Below are positions 10,984 to 63,277 of a stretch of 64,000 bases of DNA, piece by piece. Position 1 is the stretch's first letter, and every line of letters begins with the position of its first letter. This stretch comes from an uncultured Methanosarcinaceae archaeon. Its GTDB lineage: Archaea > Halobacteriota > Methanosarcinia > Methanosarcinales > Methanosarcinaceae. The stretch lies in assembly GCA_963727895.1 (NCBI GenBank), contig CAVSHT010000009.1, positions 128,001-192,000 of the forward strand. The letters are read 5' to 3'. The position numbers and the translations under genes are program-made. The notes below the pieces were generated by a model. That model was not told the origin of the DNA. It saw only the letters and a program-made list of their open reading frames with translations, and did not search any database.

Positions 10984-11009
10984 AATATATGAACAATTGT
11001 TCATATATT
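10984..11009. promoter_or_regulatory. ArsR/SmtB-type operator
   Basis: Perfect 26-bp palindrome AATATATGAACAATTGTTCATATATT immediately before the ArsR start codon. Confidence 0.85.
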
Positions 11010-28584: not shown

Positions 28585-29112
28585 TCCGCCATTGACTTTG
28601 TGTTTATCGAGCATGATTTTTCTTCAAGATCTGCAGCATTAATGTAGATCATAGATAACCAGCTTGCAAGAAGAAACATAAACGGTGAAACTAGAAATTA
28701 TCTTCTTGGGACTAGGTATAGTGAAGAAAAGAAAGAACATGGCGGGGATAGAAAATCAATTATTCACAATGAACAATTGAAACCAACTGTTAAGAAAATA
28801 GCTGAACAGTCAAAAGCAGGTTTAAGCACCGTACAAAGAACTGAGAAGTATGCTGCTGCTATTAACATCATTGTTTCAAACACTGGCATAAGCCGCCATT
28901 TGCTTTAATTAGGCAATATAAAAGCCCCAATGAAAGACATAGTTGAACTTGCAAACAAATGCCCACCTGAAATACAGGCAAATGGGGACTACTTAATTGC
29001 TATTCCTTTTGAATTGCGCAGTATAGCAAAGAACAACAAATATTTTGAGTGCAAATGTGATCCGGCAACAGGCGAGATTTTGTATGTACCTTTGAACAGG
29101 GGAGGGGTATAA
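28585..29112 (+). pseudogene. ParB-like/HTH paralog type A, module 1
   Basis: Hand translation IDFVFIEHDFSSRSAALM*IIDNQLARRNIN...GGDRKS...IAEQSKAGLSTVQR; homologous to the 36295 ORF; two stops. Confidence 0.8.
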
Positions 29113-30312
29113 GTGGAGTTGAAAATAGGTCAAGAGTTTAAAGAATTGATTCCTCCTCTCTCAGCTGAGGAGCTTACAAATCTTGAGCAGAGCCTATTAA
29201 CTGAAGGCTGTAGGGATGCTATTCTCACTTGGAATGATTGCATTATTGACGGTCATAACAGGTATTCTCTGCGTACTAAGAACAACATATCTTTTAGGGT
29301 AGAGGCTAGAGAGTTTGAATCAAGAAATGACGTTTGTATATGGATGATTCAAAACCAATTCGGCAGAAGGAATTTGGCTAATTATACTAAAGGTAGTTTG
29401 AGCCTGAGACTTAAAGAGTATTTTAGAAAGAAAGGGAAAGAAAATATTTCTAACGCTGTTTCAGTTGCTAATGCAAACCGTAGTGAAAATCCAAGTTGTC
29501 AGAAATCTGACAAGATGGAATTTTCGAAAATAGACACTAAAAAAGAACTCTCAAGGTTGGCAGGTGTATCATATGATACAATATATAAGGTTGAGGAAAT
29601 TCAGTCTCAAACTCCTTCAACGCTCCTTCCTGAATTGGAGCGTCTAATAAATTCAAATGCAATTAGTCTTAATCAAGCTCATAAATTTGTCCGTGCAATA
29701 AAAGCAATTCAAGGAAAAGTACCTGACGAGGTTACAGTTGCAAATAAAATTCTTAATGAGTTCAATCAGAATCCTTCTGTTTCCCTTGAAAGTAAGACAA
29801 AAGACGTAATACGTGAAACTCAGCGTGCAGAAAGAGACCGGCAATTGAGAGAAGCTGAAGAAAAGAAAAGACTTGCTGCAGAGCAGGCTAGAAGAGAAAG
29901 AGAATTAAAAGAAAAAGCTGAGCGTGAACGTCTTGAAAAAGAAAGATTAGAACGGGAGCGCATTAGGCAAGAACAGCTTGAGAAAGAAAAATTAAGACGA
30001 GAACAGTGGGAAAAAGAAAGAGCTGAAAAAGAGCGCATTCGAAAAGAAAAAGCAGAGCAGGAAAGAATAAAAAGAGAAAAACTTGCATTTGAACAAGCTG
30101 AAAAAGCAAGAACAGCAGCAGAGCGGACAGCAGAATTTTCCGAAGCAATGGGCATAATTACTTTGCCCCACCCACGAAAAGTATGTGTCCTTCTGTCCTC
30201 ATTCTGTTTTCGAGTTCTTTCCATTCCTTCTGAAGTTTCGCTGCCTGTTTCTCTTTATTCTTTTCCTACCTCGCGCGACGCTCTTTTCGCCTCGCCTCGT
30301 TCTCTGCTATAG
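29113..30312 (+). CDS. ParB-like N-terminal domain + HTH + coiled coil (type B, module 1)
   Basis: LIPPLSAEE, IIDGHNRY, NQFGRRNL, HTH LAGVSYDTIYKV, E/K/R-rich tail. The last ~60 aa look like read-through into opposite-strand DNA. Confidence 0.8.
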   Translation: MELKIGQEFKELIPPLSAEELTNLEQSLLTEGCRDAILTWNDCIIDGHNRYSLRTKNNISFRVEAREFESRNDVCIWMIQNQFGRRNLANYTKGSLSLRLKEYFRKKGKENISNAVSVANANRSENPSCQKSDKMEFSKIDTKKELSRLAGVSYDTIYKVEEIQSQTPSTLLPELERLINSNAISLNQAHKFVRAIKAIQGKVPDEVTVANKILNEFNQNPSVSLESKTKDVIRETQRAERDRQLREAEEKKRLAAEQARRERELKEKAERERLEKERLERERIRQEQLEKEKLRREQWEKERAEKERIRKEKAEQERIKREKLAFEQAEKARTAAERTAEFSEAMGIITLPHPRKVCVLLSSFCFRVLSIPSEVSLPVSLYSFPTSRDALFASPRSLL

Positions 30313-30502
30313 CTTTTTGAAACTGCTCGGTTTTTTCAAGGCGGGTGACTTCTTCAATGGCGAACAGTTGAACTGGTCTGTCTCTCCTGTGAATGTTTGT
30401 GACTTGGGCTGCACATTCTAAACCTGTGTCTCGCATTATTTCAGCAGTCCATCCTCTGCTTTTTATTTCAGTTAGTGAGTAATATATTTTTGGATAATTC
30501 AT
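30266..30502 (-). CDS. Hypothetical protein (3' end possibly frameshifted)
   Basis: ORF track; co-oriented with neighbouring small genes. Confidence 0.5.
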   Translation of the reverse strand: MNYPKIYYSLTEIKSRGWTAEIMRDTGLECAAQVTNIHRRDRPVQLFAIEEVTRLEKTEQFQKAIAENEARRKERRAR

Positions 30503-30522
30503 TTTTAATCACGCTGTAAAAA

Positions 30523-30871
30523 TTATTTTGTTAGTAGTGGGTTTACTTTTAGAACCACTTTTTCAGTAATTTCTTTATTTATAGCCATGTCATGACGCTG
30601 ACTTACTGCTCTAATTTTGGCGATCTTATTCTCCTCAGGTATTTGCTTCGGAACTTTTTGTTTTTCAGAAATTTTCCTGCCTTTTGCTTTCATAGCTTCT
30701 GTAGGTTCCTCAGGATCTTTACCCAAACGGAAAGGCCAGAGCGCGCACTTGCAAGTAAGGTTCAGCATTTGAACCCGCTGCACAGTTTTTCACGTCAAGG
30801 TATGATCCGCCGCAGCACTCTAAACAATGTGTTCTAACTGTTTGTAATAGTTTCGTTTTTGTAGTCGTCAT
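30523..30871 (-). pseudogene. Phage-type Cys-rich small protein, one frameshift
   Basis: MTTTKTKLLQTVRTHCLECCGGSYLDVKNC... joined to CALWPFRLGKDP. Confidence 0.65.
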
Positions 30872-30892
30872 TTTTATTCCCCAAAAGCATTT

Positions 30893-31063
30893 TTACACCT
30901 TTGTTGGTGCGCGCTCAGCTTGTCTGACGATTCTCAAACTATTCAATGAATTGATATGAACTTGAACTACGTCATCACGTTTTAGATCTATTTTTTCACA
31001 ATACTTTTTTGGCACAATGATTACTAAGTGCCCCCGGAACATTTTCGCTTTCGTTTTTATCAT
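30893..31063 (-). CDS. AbrB/MazE-like DNA-binding protein (56 aa, not in ORF track)
   Basis: MIKTKAKMFRGHLVIIVPKKYCEKIDLKRDDVVQV; GAGGT RBS. Confidence 0.65.
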   Translation of the reverse strand: MIKTKAKMFRGHLVIIVPKKYCEKIDLKRDDVVQVHINSLNSLRIVRQAERAPTKV

Positions 31064-31073
31064 GTATTCGACC

Positions 31074-31229
31074 TCAATCGATTTTTATTTTAGTTATATG
31101 CAAACTGTTTCCTACTTTTTCGATGTTGACGCAACTTTCACAGTTCAAATCAAGTTCATGCGCAAGTTTAGCAGGAACTCCAATTCCGATACTGCCGTCT
31201 CGATTTAACTTTAAAACTGTTTTCAACAT
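31074..31229 (-). CDS. AbrB/MazE-like DNA-binding protein
   Basis: GSIGIGVPAKLAHELDLNCESCVNI swapped-hairpin pattern. Confidence 0.7.
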   Translation of the reverse strand: MLKTVLKLNRDGSIGIGVPAKLAHELDLNCESCVNIEKVGNSLHITKIKID

Positions 31230-31680
31230 TTTTAAAACTCCGAATCTTCGATTATTACTACTATATACGCTGCCAAAATAAGTAAGCGTTTCGATAATTA
31301 AGCTCATAAGTCCAAAAAAACTAAATTGTCAGACTTTAAAACTGCTTAGGAAAATAAATAGAATATATTTCCAAAATATAAAAAGAATCGTAACCAGTTA
31401 AATTCTGAAAAAGAGAAGGATTAAATTTTTTGGCCGTAATTATGGGGACTCGGACATGTAATGCCCAATCGACTTCTATTTCCTGTCGAAAAACTAACTT
31501 TTATAATTATAATAGTTAAAAGAAAAAATTAAAGTAGTATGTTTGAAAGTAATATAAGGAGTTCGAATATGCCTGTCAACTATATTTGAAACTCACATTC
31601 CAAGAGGCAATAATTCCTTGGTTTGAGAGTGTTTAAGGTTTATCCCTGCCTCTTGAGTAAAAGAAAGAGGTAATTAACTG

Positions 31681-32364
31681 ATGACAATAAAGAAGAAAAT
31701 CAAAATAAGTGCTGTGTTCGCAACCATATTACTTGTGACCATCTTATTAGTGTCAGTAGTAAATGCTCAAGGAAATGAAACTACACAAAAAAATGCTACT
31801 GAAAAGCCTACCTTTTATCCGGAAACTCTTGAGGAACTAAGAAGTAATCCAGATTTTGTTGCTGAATATGGGAGCATACCCACTTTCACAACAACAGAAG
31901 AGAGATCCAAATGGATCGCTATTCTCTCTAAAATATTAGATAATATTTCTGTTGGTTTTGGTCAAGATCAAAAAATGATGAAGTATTTTGATCCGGTTGG
32001 CCCTATTAGAGCTTCTACTGTAACCTCTTATGATTTTATAGAAATAAGTATCAATAATAGTTCAACAGTCAATAAGCCTTTTTTGGATGAGTTCTATCAG
32101 CTTATTGACTCTGAAGCAAACAGTACAGGTATTAGTAATGTCCCTGTAGTGTTCGTGCGTGAAAAGAATCTAACTCTTGCAGATTTTAAAACATCAGATT
32201 CAACTAACAATACTTCAAATTCCACTAATGAAAGTATTTCGAACATAAACAATTCGAGTGAAAATAAATAAAGTACATCAAGTAAAGTGAGCTCAACTCC
32301 TGATTTTGAGTTATTGGGAAGCTTGATTTGCCTTTACGGTGGTTGGAAGTTCAGGAAGAACTAA
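31681..32364 (+). pseudogene. Secreted cell-surface protein with PGF-CTERM-like tail behind a premature TAA
   Basis: Signal peptide and S/N/T-rich linker; in-frame tail STPDFELLGSLICLYGGWKFRKN after TAA at 32269-71. Confidence 0.75.
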
Positions 32365-33042
32365 TGGAAGCAGATAAGTGAGCTACTGCAACTAATTAGC
32401 CGTTGCTTGTTGTCTTTTGTACGCGAAGTGCTTAACTACTTCACCTTATATTTTGAAAACTGTGCAAGAAAGAATAGAAAGAAAAAACTTGCATTTGAAC
32501 GCGCTGAAAAAGTTAAGCTAGAAAAGGAGCACCTTGAGAGAGAACGTGAAGAAAAAAGTAAGCAGAAAAACAAAAACGAAACTAATATATAATATTTCAT
32601 GTGATGTAAAAATGGGTTTATGTAGGTTTAGAGGAGGAAATAATTCCTCCTCGTCTTTCGCTAGCACTATCGTTTTTTAATCTCTAGAGTTAAGTACCTA
32701 ATATGTCCCGTTTTTGGTATTATAGTGGGTTTAACTTAGTCTTTAGGCGGTGTTGTTTTAAAGCTCGTTCAAAAGAACGTAACTTTAGTCGCAGGTTATT
32801 ATAATATAATATTTATACTTAATTATATTTGATTAATTTATATATAAATAGTTTTGTTATATTAACCCCATGCTGATTTTGCAGATTTCAGCAAATCAAA
32901 CTATAATTTGTAGTCAACATTTTGATTTTACTGTTATTAAGCGGAATTTTCCTCAAGATCTGAAGCGTTTAACTGGATCATAGATAATCAACTTGCGAGA
33001 ATAAACTAACTATAAATATATTTTAATTATATATAACAGATT

Positions 33043-33077
<35 letters not shown>

Positions 33078-33331
33078 TTCAGTTTTATTATATACTTCAG
33101 AGGTTTTTGTGCGTCCCTGCGTAGTTGATTTCTAGAATCCCAAACATATTAAAATCCTGACACATCATTTCTAATGACGCACCACCTCACATATAATTGG
33201 TCATTTTGAAATTTTCAAGATTAGGCAGAAAATAACCGATCTCGATTTTTTAGAGAAATGTATCCAAAGTCCTCTGAGATCTAAACTGGACTGTAACGAT
33301 TATTGTGAAAAGTAATTGGGGTATTAAAGTT

Positions 33332-33469
33332 ATGAATGAAAATGACTCCAAATGCAATAAAAAATCTAATTACGAAGAGAATGACCTGCTCGCCTTTGCG
33401 TTACTGGCTCTGCTTGTCTTATTTGCACTCAAATACATTATTTATCCCGATATTGTCGTTTGTCTATAA
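33332..33469 (+). CDS. Possible 45-aa single-TM peptide
   Basis: MNENDSKCNKKSNYEENDLLAFALLALLVLFALKYIIYPDIVVCL. Confidence 0.35.
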   Translation: MNENDSKCNKKSNYEENDLLAFALLALLVLFALKYIIYPDIVVCL

Positions 33470-33994
33470 GTCAACAAATTGTTAATTCATTGAATATACA
33501 GTCAAACGTCTAATTACTGTATATACAGCGTAAAAACAGGACGATTAATCAAAAAGTGTTCGACAAAATACCACTAATCACTCGTTTTTGGGTATTATAG
33601 TGGGTTTAAAAAGATATTAGATATTGGTTGTACATACAATCAAAAATGCGTTTTTTCGCTATTGTTATATACGGACAGGGGGGGTAAAACAAAAGTATCC
33701 CCAAATTTATTGGAACTCATTTTTAGCTTATTTTACTGCTGATAGTTCTTTTAGTTTTAGAAAGTCTATTTATAAGAAAGTCTATTTATATTAAGAAACT
33801 GTTATTCTTCGCCTATTGTATAAATATAATTTTATATAAAATTATACATGCATGAGACTCTCTATTTCTGCTAAGCATGTGTGATCAATTAGAGTAAGTG
33901 AAAAAATTTGTTAGAGGATAATAATCCGACTAAAAAACTCACCTATACAAAAGAGAAAAATATAAAATTTATACAATAAATGGAGGAAAATACA

Positions 33995-34105
33995 ATGTTT
34001 GGAAATGGATTATTTAGAAGAGGAAGATTTGGTTTTGGTGGCTGTGACGGCGGCTTCGGTGGCTGTGGTGGCTTCGGTGGCTTCGGTGACTGTGGTGACT
34101 GTTAA
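33995..34105 (+). CDS. 36-aa Gly/Phe/Cys-rich peptide (not in ORF track)
   Basis: GGAGG RBS at 33982-86; MFGNGLFRRGRFGFGGCDGGFGGCGGFGGFGDCGDC. Confidence 0.7.
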   Translation: MFGNGLFRRGRFGFGGCDGGFGGCGGFGGFGDCGDC

Positions 34106-34354
34106 GAACAGTTGCAAGATCAGTGGCTCACAAGATTTGTAAACTATCCTGTTCTACATGAATCCGCAAAAATTGTATGTAATCTACTGAAAACAACAGC
34201 CTAAATAGGATCCCTTATTTTGAGGGATCTCTAAAACAGCTAAAAACTCCTACTTTTTTGAAGTTCATTTTTAAAATAGTCAATTGAGCTTCTGGGGAAA
34301 GTAATTCTAGAACTCTTCTTAATAATAGGAATATAGGCTGGTTTTGGGACAGGC

Positions 34355-34758
34355 TCATTGGTTGGATGGATATTTGACAGCTAGAGCCTTTATTATACCC
34401 AGTATTAACAACAACGTCGATAGGCCTAAAATAAATTGATAATCAAATCTTTGGGCATATACCCCTGCTGCGATTTCACGCATGACTATTAAAATCGTAG
34501 CATCGGTTACATATGCAATTTTGATTTCTTCATGTTCACGAAAATCAGCAAAAGTCTTGAAAAGATCAATAAGAACAAAAACTGTGAGGACACCAGATAC
34601 TATCTGACCTAAACCGCCTCCAAGAGTCCCGAATAAAATTGATTTGACATTCATGAGGAGACTTATTACTCCCCCGAATAGCGCCAGTAGCAGTATATAT
34701 AGGATGATAATAGTGACTAAATCAATTACAATTTTAAATATTTTTTTTGATCTATCAT
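34355..34758 (-). pseudogene. PsiE-family membrane protein, frameshift in an A8 run near the start
   Basis: VLTVFVLIDLFKTF...DATILIVMREI; one extra A restores MIDQKKIFKIVIDLV. Confidence 0.75.
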
Positions 34759-35544
34759 AAGTATTTTATAATGAATGTTCACTTTTAACCTCCCGATAAA
34801 AAGGTTAGGGCAATTCTCCACTGTAATAAAAACCCGTCTAGTGATGTTGATTTTGAGTTATCAAATACATATAATTGCCAATCCATGTCAAACTGAAAAA
34901 CACAATGAATAGGCAACAATTAAAGAAAAGGGACTAAAGAAAAGGAACTCACAAAAAATTCCCCATTAAATCTTAAATAAAATAGCTAGTGATATTGTTT
35001 TTCTTAGGCTATAGTTACAATTTATGATTTATTAAATCCGATTTTCCGCACATGCACACATTTAAGATAATTAAATAAGATTTATGCGTTTGAGCTGAGA
35101 AATAATAGCATTAAACCTTTAACTGTCGATATTTGATACAACATACGAAACTTTTGCTTATGGGGATTTAATCAGTTCATTTTCCAAATATAATATTCGT
35201 GAAATTATATTTATATATTTTACGTTTAGAAAATAAAAGCTTTTTCAGTTTTCAAATGATTATAACCCGAATTTGACAGAAACATAAATATTATGATGAA
35301 TAAATCAGCCACATGCTTATGTTTTTTCTCTACAACTGTAATTTATATACTACGTTCTTTGATTTTTGATATTTTCATTTTTCCAAAAAATTCTATGTCG
35401 ATGCAAAGTGTTTTTTGTAAGAACTCACTTTACAAATTAACAACTTCTGTCAAATTAAGGTTAAGAAAGAGAATTTCATAGTCTATTAGAATTTACAGAA
35501 TTTTCGAGACACTGCCAAATTACTGAAAATGCACTATAAAAATA

Positions 35545-36284
35545 GGAATTGTTACTTAACTATATCTAGTTATTTATTTCTGTATTTCATCAATAGAATA
35601 ACCGAGTACTTTAGCATTTCAAGACTCTTCGTATAACACTTTGTCTTTCTTCTCAACCTTGCCAGAAAGTGCCTCAATATGCTGTTATATCCTTCAACAG
35701 TATACGTTTTTGTTTTTGATTGAGTATGGATCTTTTCTGGAAGAAACTCTGCATATGCTCTCCAGTGATCTGTCATTACTTCTCCAATGTATTTTTTCTT
35801 CACTTTTTCCCAGAGTAGTTTTCCAGTTTCTGTTCCTCTGCTACCAAAAGAGCAGTTGATGAACTTTTTCCCAACTCTATCAACAGCAATCCAGATCCAG
35901 CAATATTTTTTTTGTTACCGATGTAAGTGTGCATCTCATCCATTTCAACAATAGATATCTCATTTTCGCTTTTTAGAGCCTCCAACTCCTTACCAAATTT
36001 CTTGATCCATTTTTGGACAGAAACATGACTCACCCCTAAAAACCGCCCTATTGAGTGAAAGCCCAATCCTTCAAGATAGAGTTGTAAAGCCTGTTTTTTG
36101 ACAGAAGTGGAAAAAGCAGTTGATTTTAGCTCTACTGTATAGTTATATCCACAATCATGGCATTTGTAGCGTTGACGACCACCAACTATACCATTCTTTT
36201 TGTGACTGGAACTATTGCATCTGGGGCAGTTCATGAAGAAATAGAGGTTCTCATAATAAATAACTATAGTTAATTAGCAAAGCC
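35545..36284 (-). mobile_element. IS1-family element, copy 3, with 8-bp target duplication
   Basis: 740 bp; TAAAAATA at 35537-44 and 36285-92; InsA open; inserted at the 5' end of a ParB-like gene. Confidence 0.96.
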
Positions 36285-36954
36285 TAAAAATATAGTGGAA
36301 AATGGCTTCAATTCCGCCTTTCCTGTAATCATTTGGAATAATGCCCTTATCGATGGGCATAATCGTTATCACATATGCCAAAAGCACAAAATTGAATTTG
36401 TATTTATCGAGCAGGACTTTGCTTCAAGATCTGCAGCTAAGATGTGGATTATTGAAAACCAACTTGGCAGGAGAAATATAAACAATATCATAAGAAATGA
36501 TTTGCTTGGTAGATGGTATAATGAAGATAAGAGGTCAAGAGGTAATCCTAACGGATTTGCTCAAATTAACCAATTCCGCAAAAATTGCGGAATTGGTGAT
36601 ACTGAGCCTGCAGACATAATAGTTAAACCTGCAGATATAATAGCTAAACAAGCAGGTGTAAGCTCAAGAACAGTAGAGTATGCAGCAAAGATAACAGAAG
36701 CAATAGACACAATCACTGCAAACACTGGAATTTCCAGAGCTACAATTCTGACTCGAAAAATCAATTACAAGCAGGAAGATTTAACAGACCTTGCAAAGCA
36801 TGACAAAGAATTTCAGCTCAGAGTAATGGAAAAAGTAAAATAAGACAGTGAAGACATTGGCTCTGCAATTATAAAAACTGAACGTGAAGACACTGCCAAA
36901 CAAATGGAAGAACTTGAAGCAAAAAGAAAGCAACTTCAAGATATAAAGAAGTAG
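36285..36954 (+). pseudogene. ParB-like/HTH paralog type A, module 2
   Basis: LIDGHNRY, ENQLGRRNI, IAKQAGVSSRTVE; 5' end disrupted by IS1; in-frame TAA at 36841-43. Confidence 0.8.
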
Positions 36955-37845
36955 ATGGTAGGGTTTTAAGTCCCTATTCTCAAATCCCTACCTGCGATCC
37001 AACCCAAAGATTAAGAGGAAACCCTATTACTCTTAATCTACAAATTTATATTATCATGGTTATATATATCATAATTGATGTCAAAAATTGTGTCTAAGCA
37101 AAATATAATTTAATGTATTATATTTTAATGCCATTATATATTACAATATTATAAAATAATCATATAACATTAAAATTTTAAATTGAAAACGATTTTTGAT
37201 ATAATTTATTTAATATAGTTTATGCTATTAGTAGGTACCGGAGTTGGAAAACAAATGGGGTATTATGGGGTACCAATAAAATAAAAGAATCTCCTGGAGG
37301 TCGCTGATTCCTCTTCGAATTAATATATTTGGGGGAGCATAATATTTCGAAGAAACTGTATCGGGGGCAACAGTAAACACAGCACCTCCGGGCTTTCTTA
37401 CATTATATATTCTGAAAAATTATCCATTTAAATTTCAAAATTAAAGAGGTATTATTCATGAAACATCTAAAAATATGCCCAAAATGTAATTCTAACCTGA
37501 AATTACATTCAGACGGTGTGACTCAGTATTGCAATGTTTGTAAGTACTGGACAAAAGCAGGTACTGCAAGACTTGACTCAATAATGATTTATGGATGAAG
37601 AGCCTAAATGAAAAATACAAAAAATTTTTAAAATTTGGATCTATTCTCCTACATTTTTGCTTTCTGACAGTTTCTAACTTTTTATCCTTCAAGAATTAAC
37701 TACATGCAGGTAATAATAATCAGGTGGAATTTTCTGACTGTTTCAGCTGGCAGTGAGGCTGCTGTGAGGTTTGGAGTAAGCGCGTTCGTCTTCCATGAGA
37801 TATTTCATATTAATTACCCTCAAAAATTAAAAGAAGGGGAATGCA

Positions 37846-37884
37846 CTAGGAAGCCACGAGGCCTTTAGCCTCGTGGTAGTTCAC
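37846..37884 (+). mobile_element. IS200/IS605-like right-end remnant
   Basis: GGAAG-CCACGAGGC-cttta-GCCTCGTGG-TAGTTCAC; degenerate second copy ends at 39817. Confidence 0.6.
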
Positions 37885-38041
37885 GAATTGCTGAACAATT
37901 CCATTAAACATACCTTTTTGGAAGATTCAAAAATAAGGATTTTCTATACCGTTGAATAAGCTTCAGCTTTTTAAACTAATACCATAATCTATGCATGTAT
38001 TGAAACTCATACAATATATTCAACACTACTAGGATTTTCAC

Positions 38042-38730
38042 TGACGGTCATAACAGGTATGCTTTGTGCACTAAGAACAACATACCCTTTTAGGGTTGAG
38101 GCTAAAGAGTTTGAATCACGAAATGATGTTTGTATATGGATGCTCCAAAATCAATTCGTTCGACGTAATCTAGATAATTATACTAAAGGTAGTTTGAGCC
38201 TTATATTCGAGGAATATGTTGAGAAACAAGTTGCTGAACGAAAATCAAATGCTATTACACTGTCAAACAAATTACGCTCAGTAAAACTAGAAGAAAACTC
38301 AATTCCGCAGAAATCTGCGGAATTGGAGACTAAGCAGAGAAGAAGAGGAATCGAGACACGCGATGCTGTTGGTAAAGTTGCCGGTGGTCTCTCATGATAC
38401 AATCTACAAAGTAAAAGAAATCAAGTCTCAAACTCCTTCAGCGCTCCTTCCTGAATTGGAGCGTTTAATAATTCCACATGCAGTAAGCATAAATCAAGCT
38501 CATAAATTTGTCCGTGCAATAAAAGCAATTCAAGGAAAAGTACCTGACAAGGTCACAGTTGCAAATAAAATTCTTAATGAGTTCAATCAGAATCCTTCTG
38601 TTTCCCTTGAAAGTAAGACAAAAGACGTAATACGTGAAACTCAGCGTGCAGAAAGAGATAGACAGTTAAGAGAAGCTGAAGAAAAAAGAAAGCAGCTTGA
38701 AGAAGAAGCAAGGCTAAACCGTGAAAAAAG
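38042..38730 (+). pseudogene. ParB-like/HTH paralog type B, module 2 (5'-truncated, frameshifted)
   Basis: Near-identical to 29247-29410 and 29575-29868, with a divergent middle. Confidence 0.88.
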
Positions 38731-38746
38731 AAATCTCTTAGTTTCT

Positions 38747-39073
38747 TTACCATTTCCAATATCCAAACCAACGTATATTTTTAGTGTTAGCCTCCTCTAA
38801 ATTACGAACAAAAAGATCAAATCCTTTTATAAAACATATTGAAGTAACAATTATATTAACTCTTAAATCATTTTCTACATACATCAACCCCATCGAAAAA
38901 TACCATATAGATTTAAATAAGTCAGTACTAAAATCTTTTTTCCATATGTATGCAAGAATTCTTATAATAATGAAAGCAACTGCAGAAAAAGGAATAAACG
39001 CAAAATCTAAATATTTTATAATGTTTCCAGCAAATAACAACCAAATAGAAAGATTCTCAAACATATTCACCAA
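38747..39073 (-). CDS. Small membrane protein
   Basis: Two to three hydrophobic segments; low GC. Confidence 0.5.
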   Translation of the reverse strand: MVNMFENLSIWLLFAGNIIKYLDFAFIPFSAVAFIIIRILAYIWKKDFSTDLFKSIWYFSMGLMYVENDLRVNIIVTSICFIKGFDLFVRNLEEANTKNIRWFGYWKW

Positions 39074-53013: not shown

Positions 53014-53628
53014 ATGAGTCAAAATATAAAAGATATCACGAATATTCGTGATATAAAAATAACAGATTTATCTGGAAACCCCGCTCCTCTAGGTTTGATG
53101 GGATTCGGAATGACGACTCTGCTCTTGAATTTACATAATGCAGGCTTTTTTCCAATGAATGCAATGATCCTTTCTATGGGTATATTTTATGGTGGGTTGG
53201 CTCAGGTCGTTGCTGGAATCGAAGAATGGAAAAAAGGAAATACTTTTGGAGCCACGGCTTTTACCTCGTATGGTTTTTTCTGGCTTAGTCTGGTAGGAAT
53301 TGTTCTACTTCCAAAATCTCCAGACTATGCAGGATTAGCGGCAAATTCACTCGCTTTTGCCTCATATTTACTCATGTGGGGAATCTTTACCTTATTTATG
53401 TTCATAGGTACATTGCCAGGCTCAAAGGCGCTCTCGGTTGTATTTCTAACTCTCACAATACTGTTCATCTTGCTGGCAATAGGGAACTATCTGGGTGCTG
53501 AGGGTGCAGGTGCCGGAATACTCAGAATAGCTGGTTATGAAGGAATTCTTACAGGACTTTCCGCAATATACACAGCACTTGGTCAGGTACTAAACGAAGC
53601 ATATGGAAAGAAAATAGTTCCGTTATAA
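53014..53628 (+). CDS. satP: Acetate uptake transporter (GPR1/FUN34/YaaH)
   Basis: [25 protein letters not shown]. Confidence 0.93.
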
Positions 53629-63017: not shown

Positions 63018-63277
63018 TATTTTTTACTGATATCCCTTTGATTTTTGAAAATTAATATTTATACATATCGATATGTATAAATAACATAATTAGTGATACA
63101 ATAAAAGAGAGAGACATTCCAGAGGAAATATACCTAAAAATCAAAAAAATAGCAAGGCAAAATCAATGGATAAAACAAAAAATAAAATTTATTGGAACTA
63201 TTTTGGGTCAGGATACCTCAATTTAAATTTTTATACAATGTTTGATTTGGCTTGGGTTCAGACCTCTGGAGATTAGA

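Follow-up and report, generated by a model that had tools for sequence, protein, structure and literature searches.

The 64,000-nt window analysed here (positions 128,001 to 192,000 of contig CAVSHT010000009.1, assembly GCA_963727895.1, from an uncultured Methanosarcinaceae archaeon) contains four plus-strand ParB-like genes, each of which carries a palindrome within its own coding sequence, ahead of the codons of a helix-turn-helix (HTH). A first-pass annotation, made from the letters alone, had pointed out these palindromes and had suggested that they are intragenic parS- or operator-like, or origin-like, sites that set the specificity of their gene module, or else a hairpin-linked diversification hotspot; it had also recommended examining homologues for compensatory changes and HTH covariation, and the genome for extra copies. 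The present comparison with viral, metagenomic and archaeal relatives makes it moderately probable that the palindrome is the cognate parS- or operator-like dyad of the ParB-fold/HTH protein encoded by the same gene, inherited together with the HTH as a cassette.

All four palindromes were recovered where they had been reported, and of the four genes only B1 (29113..30312, 399 aa), of the B type, is an intact open reading frame (ORF); the other three are decayed. The B1 dyad, CCAAGTTGTCAGA-AA-TCTGACAAGATGG (29491..29518), has 13-nt arms paired at 11 of 13 positions and encodes residues about 127-136, within a linker; its core (29496-29513) is a perfect 8+2+8 palindrome, and the two mismatches of the wider dyad fall at arm positions 10-11. 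Upstream lies A1 (28588..28908), a fragment of an A-type gene with an open frame at 28648-28908 and homology, with in-frame stops, from 28588. It matches residues 39-175 of A2, and the interruption by one TAG and one TAA makes it a pseudogene. Its palindrome, TCAATTATTCA-CAA-TGAACAATTGA (28756..28780), consists of 11-nt arms paired at 10 of 11 positions around a CAA loop. A1 and B1 are separated by a plus-strand ORF of 60 aa (28930..29112) without a Pfam family, which recurs upstream of the copy of the B gene on contig C8. Further downstream, the A-type gene A2 (36274..36843, a 189-aa open frame) lacks its N-terminus; an IS1-family element on the minus strand (35570..36273), whose two ORFs encode HTH_23 with a zinc ribbon and DDE_Tnp_IS1 (2.4e-15), abuts it and truncates its 5' end. 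The A2 palindrome, ACCAATTCCGCAA-AAA-TTGCGGAATTGGT (36569..36597), is a perfect 13+3+13. B2 (38071..38800), a B-type gene with homology from 38071, is 5'-truncated and frameshifted near 38385-38397, its stop-to-stop frames being 37975-38397 and 38291-38800; its palindrome, CAATTCCGCAGA-AA-TCTGCGGAATTG (38300..38325), is a perfect 12+2+12 with an outer arm identical to that of A2. Because their genes are decayed, the A1, A2 and B2 sites are probably relics, and B1, judging from its intact frame, may still be functional.

The palindromes share a coding position, as had been claimed: they sit 100-180 nt past the motif NQxxRRN and ahead of the HTH. The accompanying statement that B1 and B2 are near-identical on both sides and differ at the palindrome alone does not stand in that form. 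In an alignment read by eye, their flanks are an estimated 85-90% identical, and the divergent block between them, about 180 nt long, covers the linker and the palindrome and reaches into the beginning of the HTH. The arm said to be common to A2 and B2 is borne out: the 8 nt that adjoin the inner CA on its 5' side are identical, both arms share them, and such 8/8 sharing occurs in 0 of 2914 A-by-B site pairs from other loci. Modules A1/B1 and C5 agree, by our reading, at only 7/11 and 6/10 arm positions; the suggestion of module specificity draws on the one module A2/B2 and is not supported more widely. A metagenome scan for further A+B modules returned none, only six loci with a single gene each. 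Calculated DNA fold energies of the four window sites range from -5.1 to -14.8 kcal/mol.

The designation ParB-like, as far as a predicted structure allows, is true by fold and not by sequence model, since profile searches of Pfam, NCBIfam and PDB sequences were negative and a Foldseek comparison was positive. At E ≤ 0.01 no Pfam family was assigned to B1, A1, A2 or B2, NCBIfam likewise gave none, and a profile search of PDB sequences yielded no ParB match; PF17762 (HTH_ParB) was matched by one of 30 relatives (1.3e-3). The AlphaFold2 model of B1 has a mean predicted local distance difference test (pLDDT) score of 80.7. It comprises an N-terminal domain (residues 1-123, with pLDDT 88-95 over residues 1-110), a linker at about residues 124-141 and, as the next domain, an HTH (residues 142-166) with predicted helices at 142-150 and 154-166. 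A low-confidence stretch at residues 121-140 (pLDDT 58-64) includes the residues encoded by the palindrome. Residues 225-342 (window 29785-30140) form an E/K/R-rich repeat (ERLEKERLERE...) modelled as one helix some 118 residues long. The final 60 or so residues have pLDDT below 50 and a sequence unlike that of the C8 copy, on which grounds the 3' end of B1 may have been read through.

With this model, the top Foldseek matches in the PDB were Myxococcus ParB, pNOB8 ParB-N, Spo0J, Noc, Caulobacter ParB and KorB. The best E-value was 2e-5 with a probability of 1.00, and the alignment of about 230 columns covered the N-terminal domain and the ParB DNA-binding domain with its HTH. There were 26 matches at E ≤ 0.001, and the first unrelated fold appeared only at about E 0.9; model and matches together thus place an N-terminal ParB/Srx fold in B1. 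Across 30 sequences, D46-G47-H48-N49-R50 and N81-Q82-x-x-R85-R86-N87 are invariant, and we read them as candidate equivalents of the nucleotide-binding ParB motifs GxxR (box II) and ENxQRxxL (box III).

Within the 3.67-Mb genome, at least nine further palindromes occupy the same coding position in other gene copies. Additional copies or fragments lie on contigs C5, C8, C11 and C3, and in each of them a separate palindrome occupies this position; in the C8 copy its arm is paired at 17 of 18 positions. A scan of genome contigs with B1 as query gave a single locus, a decayed copy. Short B-type remnants ('..ICQKSDKWTAEKIDIKK..') with the core palindrome also occur at G000 C5:179503-179530 and C3:53971-53988, embedded in an apparent repeated element found at several places. 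Perfect palindromes with a loop of at most 4 nt and arms no shorter than 10 nt number 124 in the whole genome, and about 13 of these lie in ParB-like copies or fragments.

Each full site is single-copy. The recommended scan, allowing up to four substitutions (two for the 18-nt B1 site), found every one of them unique in the genome, and site arrays of the kind that serve as operators or centromeres were absent at the same thresholds. No extra site copies were present within ±1.5 kb of 160 viral loci, four of which contained a second, unrelated palindrome. The 37-kb genome of Methanoculleus virus L4768 has one site, and the 10-bp core occurs just once in each of five viral records (37-56 kb), of which four have a completeness of at least 96%. 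Additional copies acting as operators or as centromere arrays were accordingly rejected, none being found in the genome, the viral flanks or six viral genomes.

At E ≤ 1e-3, 2857 relatives of the B1 module were found. By our own count, 94 of the best 120 of these carry MT-A70, N6_N4_Mtase or Dam domains, and four of the same 120 are fused to DUF5131 or DUF4326; the window's own proteins are without a methyltransferase domain. In virus L4768, gp52 is a ParB-like-HTH-methyltransferase protein annotated as 'plasmid replication/partition related protein', and its gene belongs to a replication and modification module far from TerL. The DNA of relatives was drawn from IMG/VR, a metagenome collection and genomes of the same order, which gave 110 unique B-type and 58 unique A-type segments from viruses, metagenomes and archaea.

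The dyad recurs throughout both sets. In the 110 B-type segments, the best even-centred dyad was paired at 7/7 positions in 53, 6/7 in 33, 5/7 in 22 and 4/7 in two, with the core GCAGA..TCTGC retained in nearly all of the 5/7 cases; a shuffled null, built on the first 79 segments and with a wider centre range than the observed scoring, gave 7/7 in 4/395 and 6/7 in 77/395. The A-type dyad was paired at 8/8 positions in 34 of 58 segments, 7/8 in 16 and 6/8 in eight, compared with 0/290 (8/8) and 19/290 (7/8) after shuffling. Arms are about 13 bp long in both types, with an odd centre in the A type (CA-AAA-TG) and an even one in the B type (CAGA-WW-TCTG). The examination of homologues for symmetry and compensation is therefore positive in these two large subfamilies; in a third, considered below, it is negative.

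Complementarity extends well beyond the conserved bases. Measured by distance from the centre in 65 B-type sites, it reaches 97-100% at positions 2-6 and then 85, 77, 89, 63, 60, 88 and 77% at positions 7-13, before dropping to 45-51% at positions 14-15 and to baseline thereafter. In 49 A-type sites it is 80-100% at positions 2-13, 61% at 14, 45% at 15 and baseline beyond. At positions 7 and 12 of the B-type sites the information content is only 0.10 and 0.11 bit, although complementarity stands at 85% and 88%; A-type positions 4-13 hold 0.27-0.70 bit, yet are 80-98% complementary. Compensatory double changes, counted along minimum spanning trees, account for 44 of the 139 changed pairs within the B-type dyad against 1 of 179 just outside it, and 86 of 154 against 3 of 181 in the A type. 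The same trees contain 71 one-sided, uncompensated changes in the B type and 48 in the A type, a frequency that shows that symmetry is not automatically regenerated.

Codon choice leads to the same level of constraint. Glutamine is encoded by CAG in 49 of 50 cases at the B-type site compared with 145 of 463 elsewhere in the same genes (31%), and serine by TCT in 51 of 54 compared with 89 of 541; CAA is used by 45 of 49 A-type sites. Linker residues flanking the site, in an alignment by eye, covary as the reverse complement dictates (C..D, L..A, P..A+E). The constraint acts on the DNA rather than on the peptide, and this is a clear case of DNA dictating the amino acids of a protein linker. The pattern of mismatches is informative as well. 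Sixteen B-type sites are mismatched at both positions 10 and 11, usually as GG/GG or CC/CC, and positions 12 and 13 are nonetheless complementary in 15 of 16 each; the common 'KQISAE' lineage keeps mismatches at positions 7-8 while its outer positions are symmetric. Pairing that resumes beyond mismatches fits two separately read half-sites better than one continuous stem. The exact arm-to-arm copying expected of self-regenerating palindromes, such as hairpin-telomere junctions, is not what these sites show, because mismatches persist at 10-11 or 7-8.

The inner half-site varies together with the HTH. Eighty B-type segments had both a dyad and a parsed HTH. The HTH residues SHDT accompany the core CAGA in 58 of 61 segments, two of the three exceptions being mis-centred picks. 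The core CCAA occurs with SHGT (three segments), GKST (one) and SHGNI (locus L107, read by eye), TCAA with SDGT (one), CTGA with GHDT (two), TTGA with G[ST]DT (the GTDT form in one segment), and GAGA or AAGA with S[DN]NT (two). L4768 gp52 conforms, combining SDNT with GGAGAA|TTCTCC. For the A type, the inner arm is common to 11 of 32 pairs with the same HTH key and to 40 of 1049 pairs with different keys. Recognition residues thus track the inner half-site in both types, as the first-pass annotation had proposed to check, and the covariation favours the HTH as the reader of this half-site.

Site and HTH also appear to move together. In a tree of N-terminal domains (63 rows), the ten sites with a core other than CAGA are scattered, and well-supported branches force at least eight changes. 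Loci L236 and L237, like B1 and B2, have common flanks and a differing block around the site. At a further locus (L120; G237:C11:241703-244984), a minus-strand ORF of 270 aa consists of two tandem partial B-type copies with near-identical flanks, one combining GCCAAA|TTTGGC with SHGNI and the other TTGA-nn-TCAA with GSDTI. Near-identical N-terminal domains therefore carry differing linker-site-HTH blocks, and sequence comparison accordingly indicates that site and HTH behave as one exchangeable cassette. A third, A-type-like palindrome adjoins the tandem ORF of L120.

Taken as the protein's cognate dyad, the palindrome would function in the following way. Its codons are placed in the disordered linker, a few residues ahead of the HTH, and the recognition helices of a dimer would read the two inner half-sites. 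Since no more than about 100 nt separate the site from the codons of the HTH, the site and its reader would be passed on and swapped as a single specificity cassette. By analogy with ParB-parS, and because the site is the only copy in the genome, it would provide one point of nucleation or loading, or else an operator for autoregulation; where a DNA methyltransferase is fused to the protein, as in phage relatives, the site would direct this enzyme to the DNA of its own element. Binding, the dimeric stoichiometry, any dependence on nucleotide and all steps downstream of binding are what we infer from the patterns above, and the effect of binding could, on the same analogy, be clamp nucleation, autoregulation, or the addressing of a fused methyltransferase to its own genome. 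The earlier suggestion that the palindrome is a parS- or operator-like site inside the gene and linked to specificity consequently gains in silico support from dyad compensation, HTH covariation, cassette exchange and single-copy status. The two companion suggestions fare less well: an origin-like role found no support, and the divergence that prompted the idea of a hairpin-linked diversification hotspot is equally explained by a relaxed disordered linker together with cassette exchange.

Several observations weigh against a cognate dyad. Site and HTH codons are physically linked, so their covariation could partly reflect hitch-hiking; several of the HTH-core classes rest on one to three loci, and two loci (L050 and L083) share their cassette by descent. 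Outer-arm symmetry (positions 8-13) holds with differing sequences inside one HTH class, and the recognition helix alone does not explain it; a second reading head, binding of a cruciform and arm-to-arm templated conversion are candidate explanations. Natural operators are rarely so perfect. No palindrome is present in the HTH subfamily of 290-305 aa, as seen in five same-genus genomes (L131, L132, L133, L135 and L138) and in L141, and L240 has no dyad with nine or more paired arm positions. On the protein side, PF02195 (ParBc) is unmatched by B1 and is not among the matches listed for 30 aligned relatives at E ≤ 1 (25 of 69 families), and Pfam identified no ParA/CbiA-type ATPase among the 14 neighbouring ORFs between 27.8 and 39.7 kb. 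Annotation of the same 14 ORFs gave no virus or plasmid context.

Three other explanations account for part of the evidence. The palindrome might be a structure-specific DNA element, a cruciform or single-strand hairpin serving as origin, nick, priming or recombination site, whose symmetry comes from the pairing of arms or from quasipalindrome conversion and not from protein readout. The perfection of quasipalindromes by templating is an established mutational process, and symmetry at nearly information-free positions and within one HTH class is what such an element would show. The A/T-rich centre in both types, the fold energies of the window sites and the unusual divergence of the surrounding 180 or so nucleotides, as at a recombination-prone spot, point the same way, and the arm common to A2 and B2 could arise by ectopic templating between nearby palindromes. 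We nevertheless consider this explanation unlikely: a stem gains almost nothing from positions 12-13 once 10-11 are mismatched, and these outer positions stay complementary in 15 of 16 such sites; the common lineage mismatched at 7-8 is symmetric farther out; one-sided changes are frequent in both types; and the best-conserved bases are the central ones, which covary with the HTH. No HUH, Rep or protelomerase gene turned up, no search having been aimed at them.

A palindrome without function, arising either secondarily from a conserved peptide (CQKSDK or xQNx) or through neutral templated mutation in a free linker, would agree with the frequency of CQKSDK in the family, with a linker predicted to be disordered and free to drift, and with the decay of three of the four window genes. 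It is improbable all the same. Long perfect palindromes are generally unstable, and here a dyad is found in nearly all 110 B-type and 58 A-type segments, with arms that end at 13-15 bp in two separate subfamilies. The flanking residues, by eye, follow reverse complementarity, and the site codons are fixed far beyond gene-wide usage, which rules out the peptide motif as the explanation. An mRNA hairpin inside the coding sequence, controlling translation or marking transcript cleavage, would suit a site within a transcribed ORF, since stems of 12-18 bp would be stable and the centre could provide a conserved loop of 4-6 nt. The mismatches disfavour it: A-type sites show 7 G·T, 18 A·C and 50 others (7/75 G·T), and B-type sites, on an estimate from percentages, roughly 3 G·T and 29 A·C. 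Because G·T is not enriched, because pairing reaches the very centre (GATATC, GAATTC), where an RNA loop could not pair, and because no Rfam family matched at the sites, an RNA element is highly improbable, and the covariation of the HTH with the centre runs counter to it as well.

The reading as a cognate dyad is closest to the known pairs ParB-parS, Noc-NBS and KorB-OB, in which the same N-terminal domain and HTH fold act on palindromic targets. A parS within the spo0J gene of Bacillus subtilis, reportedly described by Lin and Grossman in 1998, would be a precedent for an intragenic site. The differences from these systems are considerable. The dyad here spans about 28-30 bp instead of 13-16 bp, its arms are highly variable between close relatives, and each genome has a single site, which invariably falls in the linker codons beside the HTH. 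Unlike ParB-parS, the locus combines its missing ParA partner and unmatched ParBc model with a C-terminus in which a long E/K/R-rich helix or an enzyme domain takes the place of the ParB dimerisation domain. The specificity of ParB and Noc is set by a few residues of the DNA-binding domain (PMC7383237).

Two further groups of sites invite comparison. The pac sites inside small-terminase genes (P22 gene 3, SPP1 gene 1) are recognition sites within their own gene, once per genome, and the small terminase is likewise a phage DNA-binding protein whose single-copy site lies in its own gene; but pac sites are not long perfect dyads, small terminases are not ParB-like, and no link to packaging was seen here. 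In rolling-circle origins, integron attC sites and hairpin-telomere resolution sites, the arms vary by compensatory change while the structure and an A/T-rich centre are conserved. Variable arms and a conserved A/T-rich centre are found here too. Unlike those sites, the palindromes lack a Rep, integrase or protelomerase context, their symmetry spans internal mismatches, and their centre covaries with the HTH.

Among described proteins, ParB-methyltransferase fusions are of the same kind as most of the best-matching relatives of the B1 module, the window proteins themselves being without a methyltransferase domain. Fusions of the ParB-CTPase fold to DNA methyltransferases in phages, plasmids and archaea have been catalogued (PMC12704722), and two other papers deal with a ParB-methyltransferase of a Bacillus cereus prophage with non-specific nicking (PMC3592412) and with single-strand-specific methyltransferases of plasmids (PMC7736820). 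Passages of PMC3592412 and the abstract of PMC7736820 make no mention of a cognate DNA site. The string 'palindrom' is absent from the main texts of PMC12704722 and PMC13229309. The first-pass annotation's impression that the feature had no earlier description in archaeal elements holds, in that no account of an intragenic palindrome in these genes was found in the literature outside supplements and subscription journals.

More tentatively, these could be a widespread class of 'self-addressed' ParB-fold proteins of phages, plasmids and archaea, with the single loading site in their own linker codons and joined to its HTH as a portable cassette, the dimer nucleating exclusively on the element that encodes it and delivering a cargo in cis; this extension is possible but doubtful. 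The cargo would be a methyltransferase, a DUF5131 radical-SAM-like domain or a coiled coil, the symmetric and fast-changing outer arms would come from a second reading head or from arm-to-arm conversion, and the arm common to A2 and B2 would be an element-specific address. Were it true, hundreds to thousands of natural pairs of HTH variant and site would form a ready-made data set for a recognition code. If the cognate-dyad reading itself is true, it assigns a DNA target to a very large uncharacterised ParB-like group, many of whose members are fused to phage methyltransferases of unknown targeting. It would further suggest a means of restricting such enzymes to the DNA that encodes them, would account for site and reader being inseparable by recombination, and would supply many natural protein-site pairs from which HTH specificity could be learned.

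A number of minor observations complete the survey. The 290-305-aa ParB-like/HTH subfamily without a palindrome carries the motif NQLNRRSMT and occurs in about a dozen related genomes (L131-L139 and L141), with the sequence read in five. Across the window, 16 perfect palindromes were counted whose loop is at most 3 nt and whose arms reach 10 nt or more, compared with a mean of 0.35 expected from block shuffling. Nine of them are nested centres of one (AT)n run, the (AT)14 at 33047-33074. Three other long perfect palindromes, at 10984-11009 (13-nt arms), 53033-53054 (11-nt arms) and 63056-63083 (14-nt arms), are spacerless and do not resemble the ParB-like sites in sequence. In virus L4768 (L234), a palindrome at 35990-36024 with an arm paired at 16 of 17 positions and a 1-nt loop lies inside gp60, directly following the primase/helicase gene; it has no relation to the gp52 site and may be replication-related.

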